DNA of 48,054 bases from a virus (IMGVR_UViG_2563366844_000004); one strand, 5' to 3'; positions 26,008-46,502 are shown, counted from the stretch's first letter. Program-made: numbers and translations. The notes: generated by a model not told the origin, from the sequence alone.

Positions 26008-27465
26008 TTAGGAGCGCCAAAAAAAACCTGAAAACAATATAATAACAGGATAAATTTCAAGGCGACCAAGAATCATAGCTATGCACATTAAACATTTTGC
26101 AATGTCATTAAGCACTCCGAATGACGATGCAGTAGCCCCAAAACCTAATCCCATATTATTAATACATGCAGCCACTGTTGCAAATGATGTAAGAAAATCA
26201 TATCCCATACCATTTAACACCAGTATAAAAAACACCGTGAAGAGAGTATAAAGAAAAAAGAAACTCCATACAGACCTCATTACACGATCTGTAACTATCT
26301 TCCCTCCTACATTTACACTCAACAACGCTCTGGGATGAGAAAGCTGATTTATCTCGTGTTTGCTTTGTTTGAAAAGTATAAGAAATCGAAGTGACTTAAT
26401 TCCACCACAAGTTGAACCTATACATCCCCCAAAGAAACTTGACAACAGCAAAAACACTATCGTGTGCGTGGGCCAACTTGCATAATCCTGCGTAGCTAAA
26501 CCATTATCAGTGAGCATGGAGCTGGCAAGAAAAAACGAATGAATAAAACTTCCATGCAAGTCATACATACCTATATGCCAGACCTGGAAAGAGGTAACAA
26601 TGATCACCCCTAAGGCTATTAACAGAAAGAAACGAAGTTCAATATCTCTGATTAAAGGTTTTATCGTTTTCCTGCTAATAACAATATACCAAAGAGTGAA
26701 GTTGAAAGCCGATAGCAGGGAAAAAGAACCAGCCACCAGCTCAACCAAATAGTTATTAAAATATCCGATACTCTCGCTATGAGTTGAGAAACCACCAAGC
26801 GAAACTGTGGAAATCCCGTGACAAATAGCATCAAACAAAGGCATTCCTGCAAGTCTATAACAGACAATACAAGCAATACCTAATAAAGAATAAGTTATCC
26901 ACAGTGTCCGTGACGTATCGGCCAGGCGGGGAGTGAGTTTGTCATCCTTAAATGGCCCCGGCATTTCTGACTGATAAAGCTTTGCACCACCAATACCCAA
27001 TAATGGCAATACAGCAACCGCCAGAACAATAACTCCTAAACCACCTATAAAATTTAACTGTGACCGATAGTACAAATATGCCCGAGGTAATGAACTAACA
27101 TCATCAATTACAGTTGCTCCTGTTGTTGTTATTCCAGAAACCCCTTCAAACAGAGCATCAATGAACGTTAAATTAAGTTCTGAGTCAATCCATAAAGGGA
27201 ATGCACTAATAACAGAAAACAAAATCCAAAACATTACAATTATAATAAACCCATCACGGGTACGTAATTGAATGCCAGATTTCTTAGTTGTATACCACGC
27301 TCCGCCACCAATGCAAAAAAATATAACGAAAGTTATAAAGAAAACGAACAGGCTTTTTTCTTTATAAAACAATGCTACAACCATTGGTGGCAACATTGAA
27401 AGACTATAGAGCCAAACCAGGAACCCACACATATGAGTAACAACTCTTACATGAGATGTATTCAT
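26008..27465 (-). CDS. trkG: Trk-type potassium uptake membrane protein TrkG
   Basis: Polytopic membrane protein, visibly AT-rich gene, position after lysis genes as in Rac; probable start MNTSHVRVVT. Confidence 0.85.
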   Translation of the reverse strand: MNTSHVRVVTHMCGFLVWLYSLSMLPPMVVALFYKEKSLFVFFITFVIFFCIGGGAWYTTKKSGIQLRTRDGFIIIVMFWILFSVISAFPLWIDSELNLTFIDALFEGVSGITTTGATVIDDVSSLPRAYLYYRSQLNFIGGLGVIVLAVAVLPLLGIGGAKLYQSEMPGPFKDDKLTPRLADTSRTLWITYSLLGIACIVCYRLAGMPLFDAICHGISTVSLGGFSTHSESIGYFNNYLVELVAGSFSLLSAFNFTLWYIVISRKTIKPLIRDIELRFFLLIALGVIIVTSFQVWHIGMYDLHGSFIHSFFLASSMLTDNGLATQDYASWPTHTIVFLLLSSFFGGCIGSTCGGIKSLRFLILFKQSKHEINQLSHPRALLSVNVGGKIVTDRVMRSVWSFFFLYTLFTVFFILVLNGMGYDFLTSFATVAACINNMGLGFGATASSFGVLNDIAKCLMCIAMILGRLEIYPVIILFSGFFWRS

Positions 27466-27602
27466 ATCTAAATATTCTTTCAATTATAACCACCTTGCTG
27501 CAATATTATGATTATACTGTATAAAATTTAACTCCTCTTAGATCTTACTTCACTGTTCCTTATGAAACAATCATCAAAATGAATCATATTGTAGTTAAGA
27601 TT

Positions 27603-29550: not shown

Positions 29551-29625
<75 letters not shown>

Positions 29626-29628
29626 ATA

Positions 29629-29704
<76 letters not shown>

Positions 29705-30600: not shown

Positions 30601-30887
30601 AAATAACCTTCCTTTCTCCAGATTTCTTGCGTGCGAAAAACACCTTCTGCATGCATCAGGCGTAAATCTTCTTTGGTGTAATCGCTTGTTTTTACCCGCC
30701 CGTCGATTAAATCGTGGCATGAGCTACAGGCAATCGCCGCCTGCATATCGTGTGGTTTTGTCGCTGTTCCGCACGTTCCCGCCAGTCGGTAATGCGCCAG
30801 CACAGACGTTTCCGGATCGTGATTGCAGTAGCCAAGAATTCTGACGGTGCACATCCGCCCCCGCGCCGCTTTACGTAAATCCACCAT
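30597..30887 (-). CDS. YbcO-like protein (DUF1364, putative Zn-binding nuclease)
   Basis: 96 aa, Cys/His-rich (CTVRILGYCNHDPE...CSSCHDLIDGR), start codon overlaps upstream gene; nin-region position upstream of Q. Confidence 0.55.
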   Translation of the reverse strand: MVDLRKAARGRMCTVRILGYCNHDPETSVLAHYRLAGTCGTATKPHDMQAAIACSSCHDLIDGRVKTSDYTKEDLRLMHAEGVFRTQEIWRKEGYL

Positions 30888-31486
30888 TACGCAAACTCCA
30901 GCAGCTGCGCGGCCACATTTTCGACTTGTTCCGGAGAGGAAAATTTACGGAACAGAATCCAGTTCCACAGCACATTCAGAACAGATTTATAAACCTGCTG
31001 AAACTCGGTTTCGTCCATATTCGCAAAAGCGATAGATTTTGCCCGACGCCCGCGGCTACCGTCCGGATAAAAATGTTCGGTGTAAAATCCAGCCTGAATG
31101 GTTACCCACTCGCGAAAAGCCTCAAACGACTTTAGCAATGCCGTATCCCGGGTTCTGCGTGTCGCAACTGTATTCAGATATTGCTCTGCGGCATCACTCA
31201 GGGCTGGCGTGTGTTCCCGACCAACTGATTCGCACAGGTAATCAACGAAACCAGACAGCAGTTCTCGTTCGCGAGGCGTGATCGCCCCACCGACCGGAGT
31301 CCAGTAATCGAATCCCAGTTGCAGGAGTTTGAAAAAACGCTTGTGGAATGCGTAGTTACGCACACGCTTAAAGTCTGCGTGTATCCACTCGCCTATTTTG
31401 ATTTGATGCAGAAAATCACAACTCTCCGGCGTCGCCGGGAGAAGTAATCCGGAAGAGGTTTGTTTGACCAGTTGTATATGCGCCAT
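30887..31486 (-). CDS. Hypothetical nin-region protein (DUF1367-like)
   Basis: 199 aa ORF overlapping the start of the YbcO-like gene. Confidence 0.45.
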   Translation of the reverse strand: MAHIQLVKQTSSGLLLPATPESCDFLHQIKIGEWIHADFKRVRNYAFHKRFFKLLQLGFDYWTPVGGAITPRERELLSGFVDYLCESVGREHTPALSDAAEQYLNTVATRRTRDTALLKSFEAFREWVTIQAGFYTEHFYPDGSRGRRAKSIAFANMDETEFQQVYKSVLNVLWNWILFRKFSSPEQVENVAAQLLEFA

Positions 31487-31845: not shown

Positions 31846-31864
31846 AACACACCCACAAATAAAT

Positions 31865-31892
31865 CAAACCCGCTACAGCGGGTTTGATTTAT
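31865..31892. terminator. Bidirectional terminator-like hairpin between the small peptide ORF and the subtilase gene
   Basis: caaacccgctacagcgggtttg: stem caaacccgc/gcgggtttg, loop taca, T-rich flank on both strands. Confidence 0.45.
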
Positions 31893-31899
31893 ATAGTTG

Positions 31900-33506
31900 T
31901 TATACGGAAACTGGCACACGAGCAGGCAATGGATAGTGAGCCCAGTTATTAGCATTTAAAGCTCTTACGCCATCAGCATAAACTTGTGTGTTTCCATCTA
32001 ATGATTTTAAAGTTACTACAATAGTTACAGGTAAAGGCTCCATTAAGGCCGGTTCATTCGCTCTCAACGTTGTTTTAGCCTGAAGAGCCCAGTTACCCGA
32101 AGTAATTCCTTTATTAAATGCCTTGCGATGAATTTTTACTGGTAACCACTTTCCACCATGCTCAATTTGAGCTCTCTCATATCCAGATTGACCGTTTTCT
32201 CCTTCCATAGGCACTTTTCCTTTTATAGTATTATTCTCAATTAAGCCAAAACTTAGCTCTACGTTCGCGCGAACATATTCACTGCCGGCATTAGGGTTCA
32301 GTGGTGGTGCATATGCAGCAGTAATTACAATCTCACCTTTAAATTTTCCATTTTGAATAAGTGCCGATGGTATGGGATAGTTATCCTTTCTCCACCTCAC
32401 CCCAGGAACCAAGAATGTTTGGAAAATCAGAGTAAACCTATCATCACTATCATATAAGGTCTCAATAACTTCATTAGGAATTCCCGCTCCCAAATAGCGT
32501 CTTTCACTTGGCGAGTAATCAGGAGAAGATAATTGAGCGGAATGAATTAATAATGCTTTAATCAATGATGGTGAAACATTAAAGTCTGTATTAGTGGCTA
32601 TTCTCTGCCATGTATGCGCAGCTAAACTTGCCACAATTGGAGCAGCAAAACTAGTACCAAAATTAGAGCAAAGCCTATTATCTGGCCCTACGACCTTTAA
32701 ACTGCTTGCTCCTACATTCCAAGGTCTATGAACCCCACCGCCAGCATGGATTATATCTGGCTTTGGAGTAAATACAGGCCCAGGGCCACGACGAGTATAT
32801 GGTGTCGGTGTTCCAATTTCACTTAAAGCATCATTAGCTTCCATATGAGAAACTGAACCAACTGTTAGTGCTCGGACTGACTCTCCAGGAGAGGAAATTA
32901 AATCAGCACCTCCAAGCGGATCAGGATTTGGCCATGTACGTATAGGTTCATCTACATAATTACCTGCAGCAACTACAAACAAAATACCAAATTTATCGCT
33001 GAGCCGATCTAACTCCATCGCAAAATCACTAAACGTCTGCTCATTACATGGTCCGCCTCCCAAAGACAAATTCCAGACTTTTATATCTGGTCTTTTATTT
33101 ACAGCATCTGCTAGCCTCAGAATTAAATCTGATATATAAGATCCATTTTCATCTAAGGCACAAACATCATGGATTTTAGATTTTGTATCAGGAATCCATG
33201 GATGATTGTCATTTAAAAAATGAGCGCCTGATATCAATGAAGACACCATAGTCCCATGTTCATAACTCGTATCAGGAGGAATTACGTATGTTTCCCTACT
33301 CACTACCCAAGGAGTAATTGTTGCCGCGATGGGGCTTACCCCAGTGTCAAATACAGCAACAATGGGTAATTCTTCTGATGGTACGGGAAAGCTATTTGTT
33401 TCAATGCCAACAGAATCACTTACACTAACCGGGAATGCTGAATATTTTGGTTCAGGAATTAACGTTCTTATACCCGGGTAATCAATGAGAATGTCTAATA
33501 TATATC
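31900..33506 (-). pseudogene. S8 subtilisin-like serine peptidase, 3-prime fragment (catalytic domain plus C-terminal domain) of an IS903-interrupted gene
   Basis: Catalytic motifs all present: VAVFDTGV (Asp), HGTMVSS (His), AAGN (oxyanion Asn), GTSFAAP (Ser); reading frame open from the IS boundary at 33506 (track ORF begins at an internal GTG at 33303). Confidence 0.8.
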
Positions 33507-34562
33507 GGCTTTGTTGAATAAATAAGATTTCGTGCGAACGACCCTGTAGCTGGCTGGATTTTCAGGCAATACGCACGCTTTCTGGCATCCCAGCCTTTGT
33601 CATCCTGTTCAACGCACGCACCATGGCCATAGCTTCCGCTACCTGACCATCGTAGTCACGCAGCGTCAGTGAATCTCCCAACAACTGCTTCATTCTGTAC
33701 ATTGCCGTTTCCGCTATCGAGCGACGGTTATATTCCGTTGTCCATTTCCACCGTGCATTGCTTCCGCTCAGCCGCTGATTAGCAACGGCACGGTTGCGGT
33801 CTGCGTACTCACCGGGCCAGTAACCTGCTCCTTTTCGGGGAGGAATAAGCGCGCTGATTTTTTTGCGGCGCAGTTCATCGTGACAGAGCCGGGTATCGTA
33901 AGCCCCGTCTGCCGCGGCTGCCCTGATTTTTCTGTGAGTCTGCCGGATAAGGCCCGGGAAGGCTTCTGAGTCCGTGACGTTATTCAGCGACAGGTCTGCA
34001 CAGACAACTTCATGTGTGTTGCTGTCAACAGCAAGATGCAACTTTCGCCAGATACGACGGCGCTCTTTGCCGTGCTTTCTGACTTTCCATTCGCCTTCAC
34101 CAAAGACCTTCAGCCCGGTGGAATCAATCACCAGGTGTGCGATTTCACCCCGGGTGGACGTTTTGAAACTGACATTAACCGACTTTGCCCGCTTACTGAC
34201 ACTGGTGTAATCCGGGCAGCGCAACGGAACGTTCATCAGGGCAAAAATGGAATCAATAAAACCCTGCGCAGCCCGCAGGGTCAGCCGGAATACGCGTTTA
34301 ATCACCAGAACGGTGGTGATGGCGAGATCAGAATAGCGCTGGGGCCTTCCTCGTGATGAAGGCGTTGCCGACTCATACCAGGCCTGAATCGCTTCATCAT
34401 CCAGCCAGAAAGTGAGGGAGCCACGGTTGATGAGAGCTTTGTTGTAGGTGGACCAGTTGGTGATTCTGAACTTTTGCTTTGCCACGGAATGGTCTGTGTT
34501 GTCGGGAGGATGCGTGATCTGATCCTTCAACTCAGCAAAAGTTCGATTTATTCAACAAAGCC
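33507..34562 (-). mobile_element. IS903 (IS5 family) insertion sequence, about 1056 bp
   Basis: Terminal inverted repeats ggctttgttgaataaat at both ends; perfect 9 bp direct target duplication atatatatc at 33498-33506 and 34563-34571; encodes 307 aa transposase. Confidence 0.9.
33562..34485 (-). CDS. IS903 transposase (DDE)
   Basis: 307 aa from GTG: VAKQKFRITNWSTYNKALINRGSLTFWLDDEAIQAWY... matches IS903 transposase as I recall it; track ORF extends 15 codons upstream. Confidence 0.9.
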   Translation of the reverse strand: MAKQKFRITNWSTYNKALINRGSLTFWLDDEAIQAWYESATPSSRGRPQRYSDLAITTVLVIKRVFRLTLRAAQGFIDSIFALMNVPLRCPDYTSVSKRAKSVNVSFKTSTRGEIAHLVIDSTGLKVFGEGEWKVRKHGKERRRIWRKLHLAVDSNTHEVVCADLSLNNVTDSEAFPGLIRQTHRKIRAAAADGAYDTRLCHDELRRKKISALIPPRKGAGYWPGEYADRNRAVANQRLSGSNARWKWTTEYNRRSIAETAMYRMKQLLGDSLTLRDYDGQVAEAMAMVRALNRMTKAGMPESVRIA

Positions 34563-35229
34563 ATATATATCTATCATTTGGGGATAAATCCATTATCCTT
34601 AATAAGGGAAGACCACATTTTTGTCTAATCTCATCATATTTAACTCCGTGTTGTTCTAATATAGAAATAACGTTTTCATAGTTGTTGTAAGTTGCATCTT
34701 CACCTGTGTACTCAAATAGTCGTACAAGGATGTTTGATGATTCAAACAAACCATCAGTGCCTCCTGGAACCTTCCTATTCTCATCCCAAGGTTCAATGCG
34801 CTCAATCGCGCTTAGATTAGCCAAAATCGCTTTAATATTCCGATGTAAAATGACTGACTCTAATACGTCAAAACAGCCGGCATGAGCAGCAACCAACATT
34901 TCATCTATTTTGGCATGACCGGCATTTTGCAATCCAGCCTCTTGAGCAATTTTGTTCGGCCTATGCGTTTTGGCTATTCCCTGGTCTCTTAATTTGAAAA
35001 CCAAAGTACCCAAGCTTCCAGGGTACTCTGAAAGTTTGGATTCTAAATAATGTTTACTGGTTGTTAAATTTCTTACTAGCCCTTGTCTATATTCGGCTGT
35101 TACATCAACCAATACCTTTGCCCCACCGCCAGCGTTTACTATTGCACCCAAGTCACTACTGGAAAAAGGGATTCTTAACATTGGGTTTGTAACTTTTGCG
35201 TTACTAAACTGTGTACCCCTTCTGCTCAT
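34563..35229 (-). pseudogene. 5-prime fragment (N-terminal about 222 aa domain) of the IS903-interrupted S8 peptidase gene
   Basis: Frame ...PNDRYI runs into the IS (W-L-C-stop inside the inverted repeat); removing IS plus one TSD copy fuses it in frame to ...LDILIDYPG... of the downstream fragment; start overlaps ATPase stop. Confidence 0.75.
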
Positions 35230-36358
35230 ATGCTCCTGACTCCTTCAGAATGTTTGAAATTACTCTTGATGTAAGTTTGTACAAATTAGCAAGAACTCTG
35301 ATAGAAAATAATTTTTTATCTTTAGAACGTAACCAACGAATTTCATCTTCGTAAGTGCTTAAATTTACACCTTCCATAAGCGATTGAGCAAGATACAAAC
35401 GCCTATACAATTTATGGTGATTTATCACACTTGCACCTTCAATAACTGCATCCCTACGTGCATCCAAGCTCACCTGTTCAATTATTGCTCCGGATAATCC
35501 TTCCGATTTTCTTGATAAATCACTTAAATCTAGATCGCTACATATCATATTCTTTAAACGATTTTTCCAAATTAACTCTCTCTGATGTATGTCAGGCAGA
35601 GGCATTGGAATTCTGAAGCTAAATCGCCTCCAGATTGCAGGATCCAGAAGTTGCTCATGGTTAGTTGAGGCAATAATTACCGTATCCTCTGATGCCGCAT
35701 CCATATTCTGCAATAGTGAAATGACAACTCGCTGAAGCTCACCTATATCTCTCTCATTACCTCTTGCTCCAGCTAAAGCATCAAATTCGTCTAAAAAAAG
35801 CACTGATGGCCTCTGCATTACATAATCGAAAACCTGTCTAAGATTTTTGCTGGTTTGTCCCAATAAACTACTAATCAAAGTATCGCAACGCACTGTAAGA
35901 AGTGGAAAATCTAAGCGGGTAGCGATGTACTTAGATAACATAGTCTTACCTGTTCCTGGCTTTCCATACACGAGCATACGACTCGGCAATGCTGCATCAG
36001 CTTTAACAAACTCATCATAACGTTGAACATTAGTGATAAACTCTTCAACACGGGTACTGATTGCTGCAGGCAGAAAAATCTCTGAACTGTCTAATTTAGG
36101 ATAACTGACATCAACAGTGTTGAGTCGACTATCAATATCTACCGGTAATGAGCCCAGAGATATCCCACCTCCAGCCCTTTGAGCTCCTGCCAACGCCTGG
36201 GGAGCTCTAAGCAACCTTTCTCTTATCATTCTGGCTTGCTTGACCTCCCCTTTTTGTTCGAGCTTATCTGCCAGCAACCCAGCATAATTACTAGCCATCG
36301 AAGCATTTGCCTTTGTTGCACCTTCAATGATTTTTAACACTTCTGATAAATAATCCAT
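35204..36358 (-). CDS. AAA+ ATPase (classical AAA domain), partner of the S8 peptidase
   Basis: 384 aa; Walker A GKPGTGKT, Walker B LFLDEFDAL, sensor-1 IIASTN, Arg finger region WRRF; 190 bp AT-rich intergenic region upstream. Confidence 0.85.
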   Translation of the reverse strand: MDYLSEVLKIIEGATKANASMASNYAGLLADKLEQKGEVKQARMIRERLLRAPQALAGAQRAGGGISLGSLPVDIDSRLNTVDVSYPKLDSSEIFLPAAISTRVEEFITNVQRYDEFVKADAALPSRMLVYGKPGTGKTMLSKYIATRLDFPLLTVRCDTLISSLLGQTSKNLRQVFDYVMQRPSVLFLDEFDALAGARGNERDIGELQRVVISLLQNMDAASEDTVIIASTNHEQLLDPAIWRRFSFRIPMPLPDIHQRELIWKNRLKNMICSDLDLSDLSRKSEGLSGAIIEQVSLDARRDAVIEGASVINHHKLYRRLYLAQSLMEGVNLSTYEDEIRWLRSKDKKLFSIRVLANLYKLTSRVISNILKESGAYEQKGYTV

Positions 36359-36551
36359 TCAACACTCCCACAACAAAAAGCCACAGCAATCAAAAAATGA
36401 GCACGCAGAATCAAAATACTCTCTAATCGTAACGCATTTTGAGATTTTTGATACGTTTTTTTGGGATTATGTAACGCCAAATGGTCATTTTGTGTCAGAA
36501 AAATAAATCTTAGTACCGAGAATATGTAGCTTCCATCCTTCATCGTTCTAT

Positions 36552-36998
36552 TCATCCCTGATCTCCAAGCCTCTCTCGAAAACCATTCTGATAAAACGCC
36601 AGCACACGCTGCATAACTTCACTCTTCCGGCACTCGCGACAGATTATGTTCAGACGCCTGTCGTAGCGGCGTATTTCTCCGTCTGGTAATGACCAGATAA
36701 GGTCCGGATCAACCACAGATGGTTTCTTCACCTTTGCCCTGGATAGTTTTTTGCGGGCATTTTGCCAGTCCTTACGAGCCTGTTCAGACGGGAATAACCC
36801 GTAACCAGAGTTGTATACATCGCCACTGGCAACCAGCTCTCTGGCGAGAACGCTCATCAGATATCTTGTCGCACCTGTCTTGGCCTCCAGTTGTCGTAAC
36901 GTCTCGCGTCCACTCCGGCGTACTAGCTCAACAACCTGCCCTTTAATTTTTTCCCGCTCTTCTTGTGTAAATACTTTTGCCATAAGCGCCTCCGGCAA
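36552..36998 (-). CDS. Hypothetical protein
   Basis: 148 aa basic protein translationally coupled to upstream wHTH gene. Confidence 0.4.
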   Translation of the reverse strand: MPEALMAKVFTQEEREKIKGQVVELVRRSGRETLRQLEAKTGATRYLMSVLARELVASGDVYNSGYGLFPSEQARKDWQNARKKLSRAKVKKPSVVDPDLIWSLPDGEIRRYDRRLNIICRECRKSEVMQRVLAFYQNGFRERLGDQG

Positions 36999-37811
36999 TC
37001 ACTTTTCCGATACAACACGGCGGGAAGAATCAGCAATCTGTCGAACAATATCCCGGTGCTTGTTCAGCTCCCGCAGCGCGGCGCAGACTCGCTCCCACTT
37101 CTGGACATGATTTTTCGCCCGACGCAGTTCGCGGTTTGCCATATGCAGCGATGGCAAAATCAGGTCATCAGCTCGCGTTTCAGTAAACGATGGCAGCGAC
37201 TGCACAATGTCCGCCACAGTTTCTGTTTTAATATCTTCCTGTGTTGCAGCTTCCTGTACTGGTAACGCAACATCTGCTGGCTGAGGAAAGGCTTTAAAAT
37301 CAGTTTCCGTTACCGATGCAGCTTTCGGCTTTGCTGGTAAATTATCGCCCGGTATGCAGTAACGAAATTTACCGTTCTGATTAACGCGAATCAGACGACC
37401 TTTGCTGATTGCCATTGCCAGCGTTGAAGCCACTTTGCGTGATGTGGTACCGAACCATGTAGCCAACTCATCCGCCGTTTGTGGTCCACGTTGTTCAATC
37501 GTCGCAGTTAAATCGCACTCCGAAATTTTCGCGACTGTTGCCGTGGTGGTTTCTTCCGGCGGTTCTGCCTGCTCTGGCTGTTCCTGCTGAACGTTGTTAT
37601 CAGCCACACGCCAGGTGTATACGCTTTTATCAACGAAACCAGCCTTTTTCAGCTCCCACAGCTCGTTCAGTACCTCTTCACGACTGATATCAAGTCGCGC
37701 AGCCAGTTCTACCGACGTGGCTTTTCCCATTGCTTTCAGTGCGTCAAAAACAGTCTCCATTAAAATTTCCTCCCGGTAAAAATCACTTCGCAATTCCTGG
37801 CTGGACGACAT
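36999..37811 (-). CDS. Hypothetical protein with two winged-helix-like segments and an acidic/Pro-rich linker
   Basis: 270 aa; [30 protein letters not shown] and [28 protein letters not shown] resemble wHTH motifs; directly follows DnaC-like gene. Confidence 0.45.
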
Positions 37812-41353: not shown

Positions 41354-41773
41354 TCCATTATTTGGATTAATTCAATATTCTCGCTGTAGGGGTATAGCAG
41401 AAACCACCAAAGCCCGGAGGTGGTGAAATAAAACCGGGCACAACACGAAGGCGCATTTCCGATATCCATAAAGAGTCGGTCTTGTCTGTTAAATTTAAAT
41501 GGTGGGAGTGCGCCTCCGGTTGTGGATAACAACACTGCTATGTGTAGTCTTGGCGGCATCAGTTTTTTCTTGAAGTTCGACTGATGCCCGCCCTTTTTAA
41601 AGTGAATTTTGTGATGCGGTGAATGCGGCTAAGCGCACGCGGCACAGTTAAAAGTCATGTTAGTCCTTATTGGTTTGGGTGGGAAAGCCGACTGTAATTG
41701 TTAACTGGTTGCAGTCACCTGGAGGCACCAGGCACCGCATCAACAAAGTTCATTTGTAAAAATGGAGATAATT

Positions 41774-46126: not shown

Positions 46127-46321
46127 ATGAGATATGACAATGTTAAACCATGTCCATTTTGTGGTTGTCCATCAGTAACGGTGAAAGCCATTTCAGGATA
46201 TTACCGAGCGAAGTGTAACGGATGCGAATCCCGAACCGGTTATGGTGGAAGTGAAAAAGAAGCACTCGAAAGATGGAATAAACGAACCACTGGAAATAAT
46301 AATGGAGGTGTTCATGTATAA
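46127..46321 (+). CDS. ralR: Restriction alleviation protein RalR (Lar)
   Basis: 64 aa from MRYDNVKPCPFCGCPSVTVKAISGYYRAKCNGCESRTGYGGSEKEALERWNKRTTG...; four-Cys zinc ribbon. Confidence 0.9.
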   Translation: MRYDNVKPCPFCGCPSVTVKAISGYYRAKCNGCESRTGYGGSEKEALERWNKRTTGNNNGGVHV

Positions 46322-46502
46322 AATTACCGCCACTATTGAAAAGGAAGGTGGCACTCCTACTAACTGGACAAGATATTCAAAATCTAAACTAACGAAATCA
46401 GAATGCGAAAAAATGCTCTCAGGTAAAAAAGAAGCAGCCGTTTCCAGAGAGCAGAAAGTAAAACTGATAAATTTTAATTGCGAGAGACTTCAGTCCTCGT
46501 GA
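46314..46502 (+). CDS. ydaC: YdaC-like small protein
   Basis: 62 aa from MYKITATIEKEGGTPTNWTRYSKSKLTKSECEKMLSGKKEA...; start overlaps ralR stop. Confidence 0.7.
   Translation: MYKITATIEKEGGTPTNWTRYSKSKLTKSECEKMLSGKKEAAVSREQKVKLINFNCERLQSS

Follow-up and report, generated by a model that had tools for sequence, protein, structure and literature searches.

An IS903-group insertion in the ietAS toxin/antitoxin-type anti-phage module of a Rac-type Escherichia coli prophage

The stretch of viral DNA analysed here, referred to as the window, is 48,054 nucleotides long and carries, in a slot of variable content that separates the replication genes from a Q-like antiterminator gene, two co-directional neighbouring genes, one for an AAA+ ATPase and, downstream of it, one for a subtilase that is interrupted by an insertion sequence (IS). 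The features of this region, listed in the direction of transcription, are the following.

36552..36998, minus strand: backbone gene upstream of the slot (DUF977 / LygF-like), forming its left border
31847..36571, minus strand: ietAS cargo cassette (moron), GC 39.9%, 3660 bp when the IS and the duplication are not counted, delimited by homology borders and GC
36359..36551, minus strand: spacer upstream of ietA, 193 bp from the end of the DUF977 gene to the start codon (ATG) of ietA, presumed promoter region
35204..36358, minus strand: ietA (iteA), intact gene for a 384-aa AAA+ ATPase, antitoxin component (PADLOC, NCBIfam, Pfam)
34563..35229, minus strand: ietS 5′ fragment, codons 1-222, PADLOC IetS profile positions 3-209
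34563..34571, no strand: target-site duplication copy 1, the 9-bp direct repeat GATATATAT
33507..34562, minus strand: insertion sequence of the IS903 group (IS5 family), 1056 bp, oriented as ietAS, recognised by its inverted repeats and transposase
33562..34530, minus strand: IS transposase ORF, 322 aa from TTG (307 aa according to gene callers), identified by Pfam and NCBIfam
33498..33506, no strand: target-site duplication copy 2, the same 9-bp direct repeat
31900..33497, minus strand: ietS 3′ fragment, codons 223-754 and stop, PADLOC IetS profile positions 281-748 (6.5e-219)
31859..31892, minus strand: intrinsic terminator hairpin from RNA folding, a 15-bp stem followed by a T-rich tail, directly 3′ of the ietS stop
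30887..31486, minus strand: backbone gene downstream of the slot (DUF1367), forming its right border and followed by DUF1364 and DUF1133 (Q-like) genes

In the ietA product, the Pfam AAA domain covers residues 128-253, and Walker A (GKPGTGKT, at residue 132), Walker B (VLFLDEFDAL, at residue 186) and the SRH are all present, which verifies the coordinates and motifs of the 384-aa ATPase given in an earlier note on this DNA. The protein matches the PADLOC model PDLC02196 over its full length (8.9e-143) and the NCBIfam IteA equivalog NF042959 over model positions 1-367 of 367, with 526.6 bits against a curated cut-off of 510 bits. Sequence searches for solved IetA structures returned none, the best matches being p97/Cdc48-type AAA modules. 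The stop of ietA and the start of ietS, an ATG at 35229 preceded by AGGAG, overlap by 26 nt, in line with the translational coupling proposed earlier, and both the gene order and this overlap are the same as in RefSeq iteA/iteS.

The 5′ ORF of ietS runs from 35229 into the IS and ends with ...DRYIWLC and a stop at 34552, and the 3′ fragment encodes the end of a pro-domain-like unit, the S8 catalytic domain and a C-terminal beta domain. When the IS and one 9-bp duplicate are taken out in silico, 35229..34563 joins 33497..31900 in frame to give 2265 nt and a protein of 754 aa, as the earlier reconstruction had estimated. The repaired IetS is a full-length match to the PADLOC model PDLC02197 (2.3e-299) and reaches 1039 bits with NCBIfam NF042956 (curated cut-off 900 bits) over model positions 1-747 of 747. 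Pfam Peptidase_S8 spans residues 268-544, and the Asp/His/Ser triad and the oxyanion Asn that had been read as a complete subtilase domain are all there, D273 (VAVFDTGV), H303 (HGTMV), N402 (AAGN) and S505 (GTSFAAP) being invariant in 40 homologues. The flanking domains are of other sizes than first described: the N-terminal one ends near residue 262 instead of about 220, and the C-terminal one comprises about 195 aa instead of about 230.

Judged by the two protein sequences, the locus is true ietAS (iteAS), with matches at the equivalog level, and this goes beyond the ietAS homologue or related ATPase-protease system suggested before, as both proteins fit the PADLOC models over their whole length and pass the curated cut-offs of NCBIfam. 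The possibility of an AAA/S8 pair unrelated to ietAS, such as one with a mycosin- or proteasome-type partner, was rejected because those models score far under their cut-offs. The ietAS / iteAS anti-phage system, which reportedly goes back to Gao et al. in 2020, is already known: it has a name, both PADLOC and NCBIfam provide models for it, and RefSeq annotates it at 100% identity. The empty-site allele, an exact match of 4136 bp (5201 - 1056 - 9), occurs with 100% identity in many complete E. coli chromosomes and in ON470595, and strain 266917_2 carries it too, so that uninterrupted alleles do exist in related prophages; RefSeq names its genes iteA/iteS, the IetA product being WP_000385105.1. 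Because an identical intact allele is thus already annotated in many RefSeq genomes, the novelty that the earlier note implied is lost.

IS903 is characterised by a length of about 1057 bp, by inverted repeats of 18 bp at its ends, by a 9-bp target duplication and by one IS5-family DDE transposase, and membership at the isoform level means, in ISfinder practice, near-identity to the reference sequence. The IS of the window resembles IS903 in its length, in its terminal repeats (GGCTTTGTTGAATAAATC), in the 9-bp target duplication and in its single transposase of the IS5-family DDE type (Pfam DDE_Tnp_1_5 and DDE_Tnp_1; NCBIfam transpos_IS5_2, 5.7e-106). Its terminal inverted repeats, GGCTTTGTTGAATAAAT(C/A), are perfect over 17 nt and are present in the whole window at these two places only. 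It shows all the structural hallmarks of IS903 but not near-identity, since it is only 87.7-88.0% identical in nucleotide sequence to the IS903 copies annotated in the phages P7 and HK022; it thus belongs to the IS903 group without being IS903 proper, and of the proposed split of the protease by IS903 the split itself stands, at codon 222/223, while the name of the element does not. Copies that are 100% identical are found in many E. coli genomes, annotated merely as “IS5 family transposase”, and the element is multi-copy, a single genome having it at up to 47 places. Since IS copies often cause misassembly, the insertion might be an assembly artefact in a strain that really has an intact ietS, a reading that we regard as extremely improbable: at the junctions the target duplication is clean and the inverted repeats are complete, and the same truncated product occurs in a GCA_000407765.1 scaffold and in the separately assembled Logan contig SRR640939, even though the two possibly represent one isolate.

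The insertion parts the N-terminal region of IetS from its catalytic domain. The first canonical start in the 3′ part is a GTG at 33303, downstream of the catalytic Asp273; the C-terminal ORF that begins there, the longest of those with such a start, lacks this residue and therefore an active protease cannot be made, and consequently neither toxicity nor defence is expected from the window copy. On these sequence grounds the copy is almost certainly dead, as the earlier note had thought probable, and it is a pseudogenised ietAS, a member of the system by descent whose two genes are no longer both intact. What remains is ietA as an intact orphan antitoxin gene, and, by analogy with characterised pairs, loss of the toxin may be a tolerated decay route for such a pair. 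That the locus is still functional in its interrupted form, either through an orphan IetA (perhaps with the 225-aa IetS fragment) neutralising an incoming ietS or through the IS acting as a reversible off-switch, would be compatible with the facts that ietA, the spacer before it and the ribosome-binding site of ietS are unaffected and have the same sequence as in functional alleles, and that precise excision between the perfect 9-bp repeats could reset ietS, the repaired ORF being in frame. We nevertheless consider it very unlikely. In the predicted structure, the N-terminal fragment breaks off inside helix 217-228, which belongs to the second ferredoxin-like unit, and is likely to misfold; moreover, in comparison with four intact reference copies, the 3′ part of ietS carries the private substitution S674L (window position 32144), consistent with relaxed selection or simple polymorphism. 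The interrupted allele is, finally, absent from all 5,426 complete E. coli genomes surveyed and was found in one NCBI assembly only (GCA_000407765.1) and in a few sequencing runs, a rarity that fits an insertion of recent date and of neutral or deleterious effect.

In the same survey the ietAS operon was found in 78 of the 5,426 genomes, invariably in a Rac-type prophage. Independent lesions of ietS with an intact ietA are present in three of the 78, with the reservation that NR3736 may have its lesion in common with 28Eco12 and that one lesion is a homopolymer indel and possibly an assembly error; together with the window this amounts to 3-4 lesions in ietS versus none in ietA. Recurrent inactivation of the toxin alone was considered as evidence of a toxin/antitoxin asymmetry and rejected as unproven, because ietS is twice as long as ietA (2:1) and the pattern is not statistically significant. 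Scanners can still call the window locus ietAS, as the broken C-terminal fragment alone matches the IetS model with the value given above, so that dead copies can enter tallies of “systems present”.

The borders of the cassette are given by homology to the ietAS-free prophages L005-L008, which stops at 31846 and restarts at 36572-36590, and by base composition, its GC content of 39.9% contrasting with 46-49% in the flanks; the pair is thus AT-rich in comparison with its surroundings, as had been remarked, and the upstream intergenic region of about 190 bp noted at the same time measures 193 bp. A promoter in this spacer is inferred; no convincing sigma-70 promoter was found in its 193 bp, the best candidate being GACACA-19 nt-CATAAT. 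The terminator hairpin folds with -26 kcal/mol (z = -6.4) and none of 200 shuffled sequences was equally stable. Rfam, run over the whole window, reported nothing in or beside the cassette. The accessory slot between the replication genes and Q to which the pair had been assigned is hypervariable between DUF977 and DUF1367, with other cargo in related prophages, and the DUF1367 flank is found in 1,329 genomes versus 78 for ietAS. Other occupants of the slot include Hok/Gef toxins and unannotated sets of ATP-binding/STAS-like and methyltransferase genes, and these latter sets may merit screening. In Rac-type prophages the DUF977–DUF1367 slot is a cargo hotspot.

Taken together, we conclude with a probability of roughly 93% that the locus is ietAS, a toxin/antitoxin-type anti-phage module, carried as self-contained cargo by a Rac-type lambdoid E. 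coli prophage and inactivated by an IS; none of the observations speaks against the identity of the pair. In homologues of this module the protease is the toxin and the active ATPase is the antitoxin, and it has been stated that the “anti-phage mechanism remains unknown” (PMC13069673). In Mycoplasma, deletion of the antitoxin is lethal and deletion of the toxin is viable (PMC8562856), the homologue in SGI1 is a functional TA pair that stabilises its island (PMC5006074), and abortive infection set off by a phage protein has been reported for a homologue (bioRxiv 10.1101/2022.08.27.505566). By analogy, in the intact system IetS would be an intracellular subtilase, toxic by proteolysis, and the AAA+ ATPase IetA would have to be active to keep it harmless; a phage protein made in infection would tip the balance between the two, and the freed IetS activity would kill or arrest the cell and thereby abort the infection.

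The pair could also serve mainly as a prophage addiction or stabilisation module acting by post-segregational killing, with phage defence secondary or absent for this allele. Such a role is possible, if on the whole unlikely. It is favoured by the discovery of ietAS as a plasmid-stability TA system on pTiC58 and by the stabilisation of SGI1 by its homologue (PMC13069673, PMC5006074), by the limited protection that the ietAS of E. coli ECOR52, itself prophage-located in this species, gives alone against 29 phages (bioRxiv 10.1101/2022.08.21.504612), and by the Hok/Gef toxins housed in the same slot of other prophages. By contrast, homologues protect by abortive infection, for which a phage trigger has been identified (PMC13069673; bioRxiv 10.1101/2022.08.27.505566), and the two roles can coexist. 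With its toxin gene broken, the window copy can serve neither addiction nor defence.

As to how an anti-phage ietAS might be controlled, the predicted structure of IetS begins with a long helix, which is followed by two ferredoxin-like units; the S8 domain comes next, and a C-terminal beta domain resembling that of KP-43 comes last. An I9-type pro-domain has a beta-alpha-beta-beta-alpha-beta fold set against the catalytic domain, as in pro-subtilisins, and in the model the second ferredoxin-like unit of IetS is apparently placed like such a subtilase pro-domain. The model superposes with pro-forms (pro-subtilisin E, ProN-Tk-SP, fervidolysin and CspB) over 310-420 residues and with KP-43 over 363 residues, the C-terminal beta domain included, and in structure comparison the N-domain resembles pro-peptide-type inhibitors. 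In sequence, Pfam on the N-domain of 20 IetS homologues gave at E <= 10 neither Inhibitor_I9 nor any consistent family, and searches for solved IetS structures returned none, the matches being generic subtilases only, with E values around 1e-5. Unlike the pro-subtilases and KP-43, IetS is cytoplasmic, would be controlled by a partner AAA+ ATPase, carries in front a long helix and an additional ferredoxin-like unit, and lacks the I9 sequence signature. If IetS is indeed built like a zymogen, as the model suggests, ATP-driven remodelling of the pro-domain-like region would be a plausible handle for IetA. A rather doubtful but specific version is that the second ferredoxin-like unit is the switch, that an IetA hexamer holds IetS off by ATP-dependent engagement of the N-terminus, and that the phage trigger diverts IetA so that the protease fires. 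If this were true, the N-terminal 260 residues, encoded here upstream of the IS, would be the regulatory handle of ietAS defence; the zymogen-like layout thus offers a concrete and testable idea for the ietAS mechanism.

Compared with known systems, the window pair has the two-gene architecture, the order and the overlap in common with ietAS/iteAS (NF042959, NF042956, PADLOC IetA/IetS), and it differs only by the IS in ietS, which makes it non-functional, and by the additional missense change S674L. With ietHAS (Liu-DS4), an ietAS variant with an SNF2 helicase (PMC13069673), it has the ATPase and protease core in common, but no helicase gene adjoins the window pair and its borders fit ietA and ietS only. 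IetA/IetS of pTiC58, S026/S025 (sgiAT) of SGI1 and TA132/133 of Mycoplasma likewise combine a subtilase toxin of ~750 aa with an AAA ATPase antitoxin that lies upstream of it, and in these pairs the toxin is dispensable and the antitoxin is not. They are plasmid-borne, part of a genomic island or chromosomal, and they have been studied for stability or toxicity, whereas the pair described here is the cargo of a prophage.

The ATPase gene and the split protease gene lie on the minus strand of the window, and the layout proposed in the earlier note agrees exactly with the ORF map and the sequence. The features concerned are the following.

36358-35204, minus strand: ietA, gene of the 384-aa ATPase (ORF map and sequence)
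35229, minus strand: start of the protease gene ietS, with AGGAG upstream, overlapping the ATPase gene by 26 nt
33507-34562, minus strand: insertion sequence (IS), 1056 bp, with 17-nt perfect terminal inverted repeats
31859-31892: hairpin terminator directly after the ietS stop (–26 kcal/mol, z = –6.4)

The interrupted ietS frame enters the IS, terminates (…DRYIWLC*) at 34552 (minus strand), resumes at 33497 and runs to a stop at 31900 (minus strand). The terminal inverted repeats of the IS have no further copy in the window. On either side of the element lies one copy of the 9-bp direct repeat GATATATAT (34563-34571 and 33498-33506), and removal of the IS and of one repeat copy gives an in-frame ietS ORF of 2265 nt, encoding 754 aa.

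By profile comparison, the pair is ietAS itself, and the homology to this system put forward in the earlier note proves firmer than proposed, since both proteins match the PADLOC models (IetA over its full length, 8.9e-143; repaired IetS, 2.3e-299), both clear the curated NCBIfam equivalog cut-offs (IteA, 526.6 bits against 510; repaired IteS, 1039 bits against 900), and the diagnostic motifs are conserved. IetA contains the Walker A and Walker B motifs together with the second region of homology, and D273, H303, N402 and S505 of IetS are invariant across 40 homologues, down to 50% identity. Pfam recognizes only two domains, AAA at IetA residues 128-253 and Peptidase_S8 at residues 268-544 of repaired IetS. 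Proteasomal ATPases, FtsH, mycosin and all other NCBIfam families score far under their own cut-offs. The system is already known and already annotated in public genomes.

Uninterrupted alleles, whose existence the earlier note had suggested checking, were retrieved with a 5201-bp query spanning the locus, at 100% identity in many complete E. coli chromosomes and in the sequenced “phage” vB_EcoS-683R6. The empty-site match is exactly 4136 bp long, that is 5201 – 1056 – 9, and RefSeq names the genes at these loci iteA and iteS. The operon is present in 78 of 5,426 complete genomes, always chromosomal, single-copy and at least 99% identical, and in none of these 78 is this IS present. The exact truncated product of the window is on record only in the NCBI assembly GCA_000407765.1 and a few sequencing runs, so the insertion is real and independently assembled, but restricted to a single lineage. 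As to the element, copies 100% identical to it are found in many E. coli genomes; its identity to the IS903 annotated in phages P7 and HK022 is only 88%, which places it as a relative within the IS903 group and not as IS903 itself.

The inactivation anticipated for this copy is borne out by the reading frames. A 225-aa IetS fragment can be made 5′ of the IS, while 3′ of it no canonical start precedes GTG at 33303, which is already past the catalytic Asp273. On this evidence the locus cannot yield an active protease, and should therefore provide neither toxin nor defence. The ietA gene is undamaged and does not differ from functional alleles. The 3′ part of ietS carries S674L at position 32144 (TTA, Leu674, instead of TCA, Ser674), private with respect to four intact reference copies and adjoining the invariant W673; the change may reflect drift following inactivation or no more than a polymorphism.

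A split iteS beside an intact iteA, independent of the lesion in the window, occurs in 3 of the 78 complete genomes.

28Eco12 (NZ_CP038505): iteS Y557*, TAT→TAA at codon 557; iteA intact
B19695 (NZ_CP196120): iteS –1 deletion within a CCCC run close to codon 278, perhaps an assembly error; iteA intact
NR3736 (NZ_AP040205): iteS split; iteA intact

This pattern fits decay of a toxin-antitoxin (TA) pair via its toxin, but the numbers are too small for proof, the more so because ietS has double the length of ietA. Both fragments in the window still strongly match the PADLOC IetS model (31903-33303, 6.5e-219; 34555-35229, 3.1e-55), and for this reason automated defence-system scans and censuses may count the dead copy as a complete ietAS.

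The window is ~99.9% collinear with a Rac-type lambdoid prophage integrated beside ttcA, with the order intR, xisR, recET, kilR, racR, ydaSTUV, DUF1627, DUF977, iteA-iteS, DUF1367, DUF1364, a DUF1133 Q-like gene, tRNA-Thr/Gly, lysis genes and trkG; the DUF1367 flank was found in 1,329 genomes. Because homology to ietAS-free prophages stops at 31846 and resumes at 36572-36590, a cassette of 3.66 kb is delimited, closed by the strong hairpin terminator behind ietS. Among the four genomes lacking ietAS that were sampled, the contents of the slot differ widely, and the assignment of the pair to an accessory slot was thus correct.

First genome: Hok/Gef, a nucleoid-associated protein and IS421
Second genome: two hypothetical proteins and a DUF1971 protein
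O157:H7 strain MB41-1 (prophage L007, 7600-11099): Dcm methyltransferase, O-methyltransferase and ATP-binding protein
Strain ETEC6335 (prophage L008, 8165-10122): ATP-binding protein, STAS-like protein and hypothetical protein, next to HokD/hokD

The last two sets are possible defence candidates. The cassette is AT-rich, as had been noticed (39.9% GC against 46-49% in the flanks), and a separate intergenic spacer of 193 bp precedes ietA; since a sigma-70 search gave no good match, a promoter belonging to the cassette is only presumed. A 73-aa ORF overlapping this spacer (36334-36555, minus strand), called by some gene finders and absent from PGAP, has no Pfam match and is probably spurious.

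Other prophage genes in the window include tRNA-Gly(TCC) and tRNA-Thr(TGT) (29551-29625 and 29629-29704, minus strand), between the Q-like and lysis genes, and the classical Rac cargo gene trkG, a very AT-rich stretch at ~26008-27483 (35% GC around 27000-27499), positioned from the annotation of ON470595.1 (Escherichia phage vB_EcoS-683R6). RalA sRNA (46320-46498, minus strand; Rfam RF02694, 220 bits) is the antitoxin of the Rac type I pair RalR/RalA, a second TA module of this prophage. Apart from the IS, the only structural differences from ON470595.1 are ~24 nt that the window lacks within the DUF1627 gene (37663-37665) and a stretch near 41.4 kb where the alignment breaks and overlaps (around 41375-41497). 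That record continues beyond the integrase into chromosomal ttcA, dbpA, zntB, dgcM and smrA, and is a prophage with host flank; its label for ietA is “cell division protein FtsH”, and that for the 73-aa ORF is “kinase (fragment)”.

No solved structure of IetA or IetS was found. An AlphaFold2 model of an intact IetS allele, with 40 homologues in the alignment, is confident (pLDDT 82.3, pTM 0.86) and predicts a long helix (residues 45-68), two β-α-β-β-α-β units (74-147 and 167-237), the S8 domain after the second unit, and a C-terminal β domain (576-720). The IS, at codon 222/223, falls within helix 217-228 of the second unit.

The feature is thus a known system, ietAS, pseudogenised by an IS, and what it retains of value is the description of a cargo hotspot, a caution for annotation and a structural idea open to testing. 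ietAS was first reported as a plasmid-stability TA pair of serine protease toxin and ATPase antitoxin; anti-phage defence, which needs the protease activity, was found later, constructs with mutated ietA were unobtainable, and the paper states that the mechanism against phage “remains unknown” (PMC13069673). The homologue carried by SGI1 works as a TA pair (PMC5006074), and in Mycoplasma deletion of the ATPase only is lethal, while the cells tolerate loss of the protease or of the two genes together (PMC8562856). For one ietAS of Bacillus the mode of action is abortive infection, with the expression of one phage protein as its trigger (bioRxiv 10.1101/2022.08.27.505566), and in E. coli the system typically resides in prophages and is weak by itself (bioRxiv 10.1101/2022.08.21.504612). 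From this literature on homologues, the best-supported model for the intact system is that IetS would be a self-sufficient toxic protease, which IetA would hold harmless in an ATP-dependent manner until infection disrupts this control.
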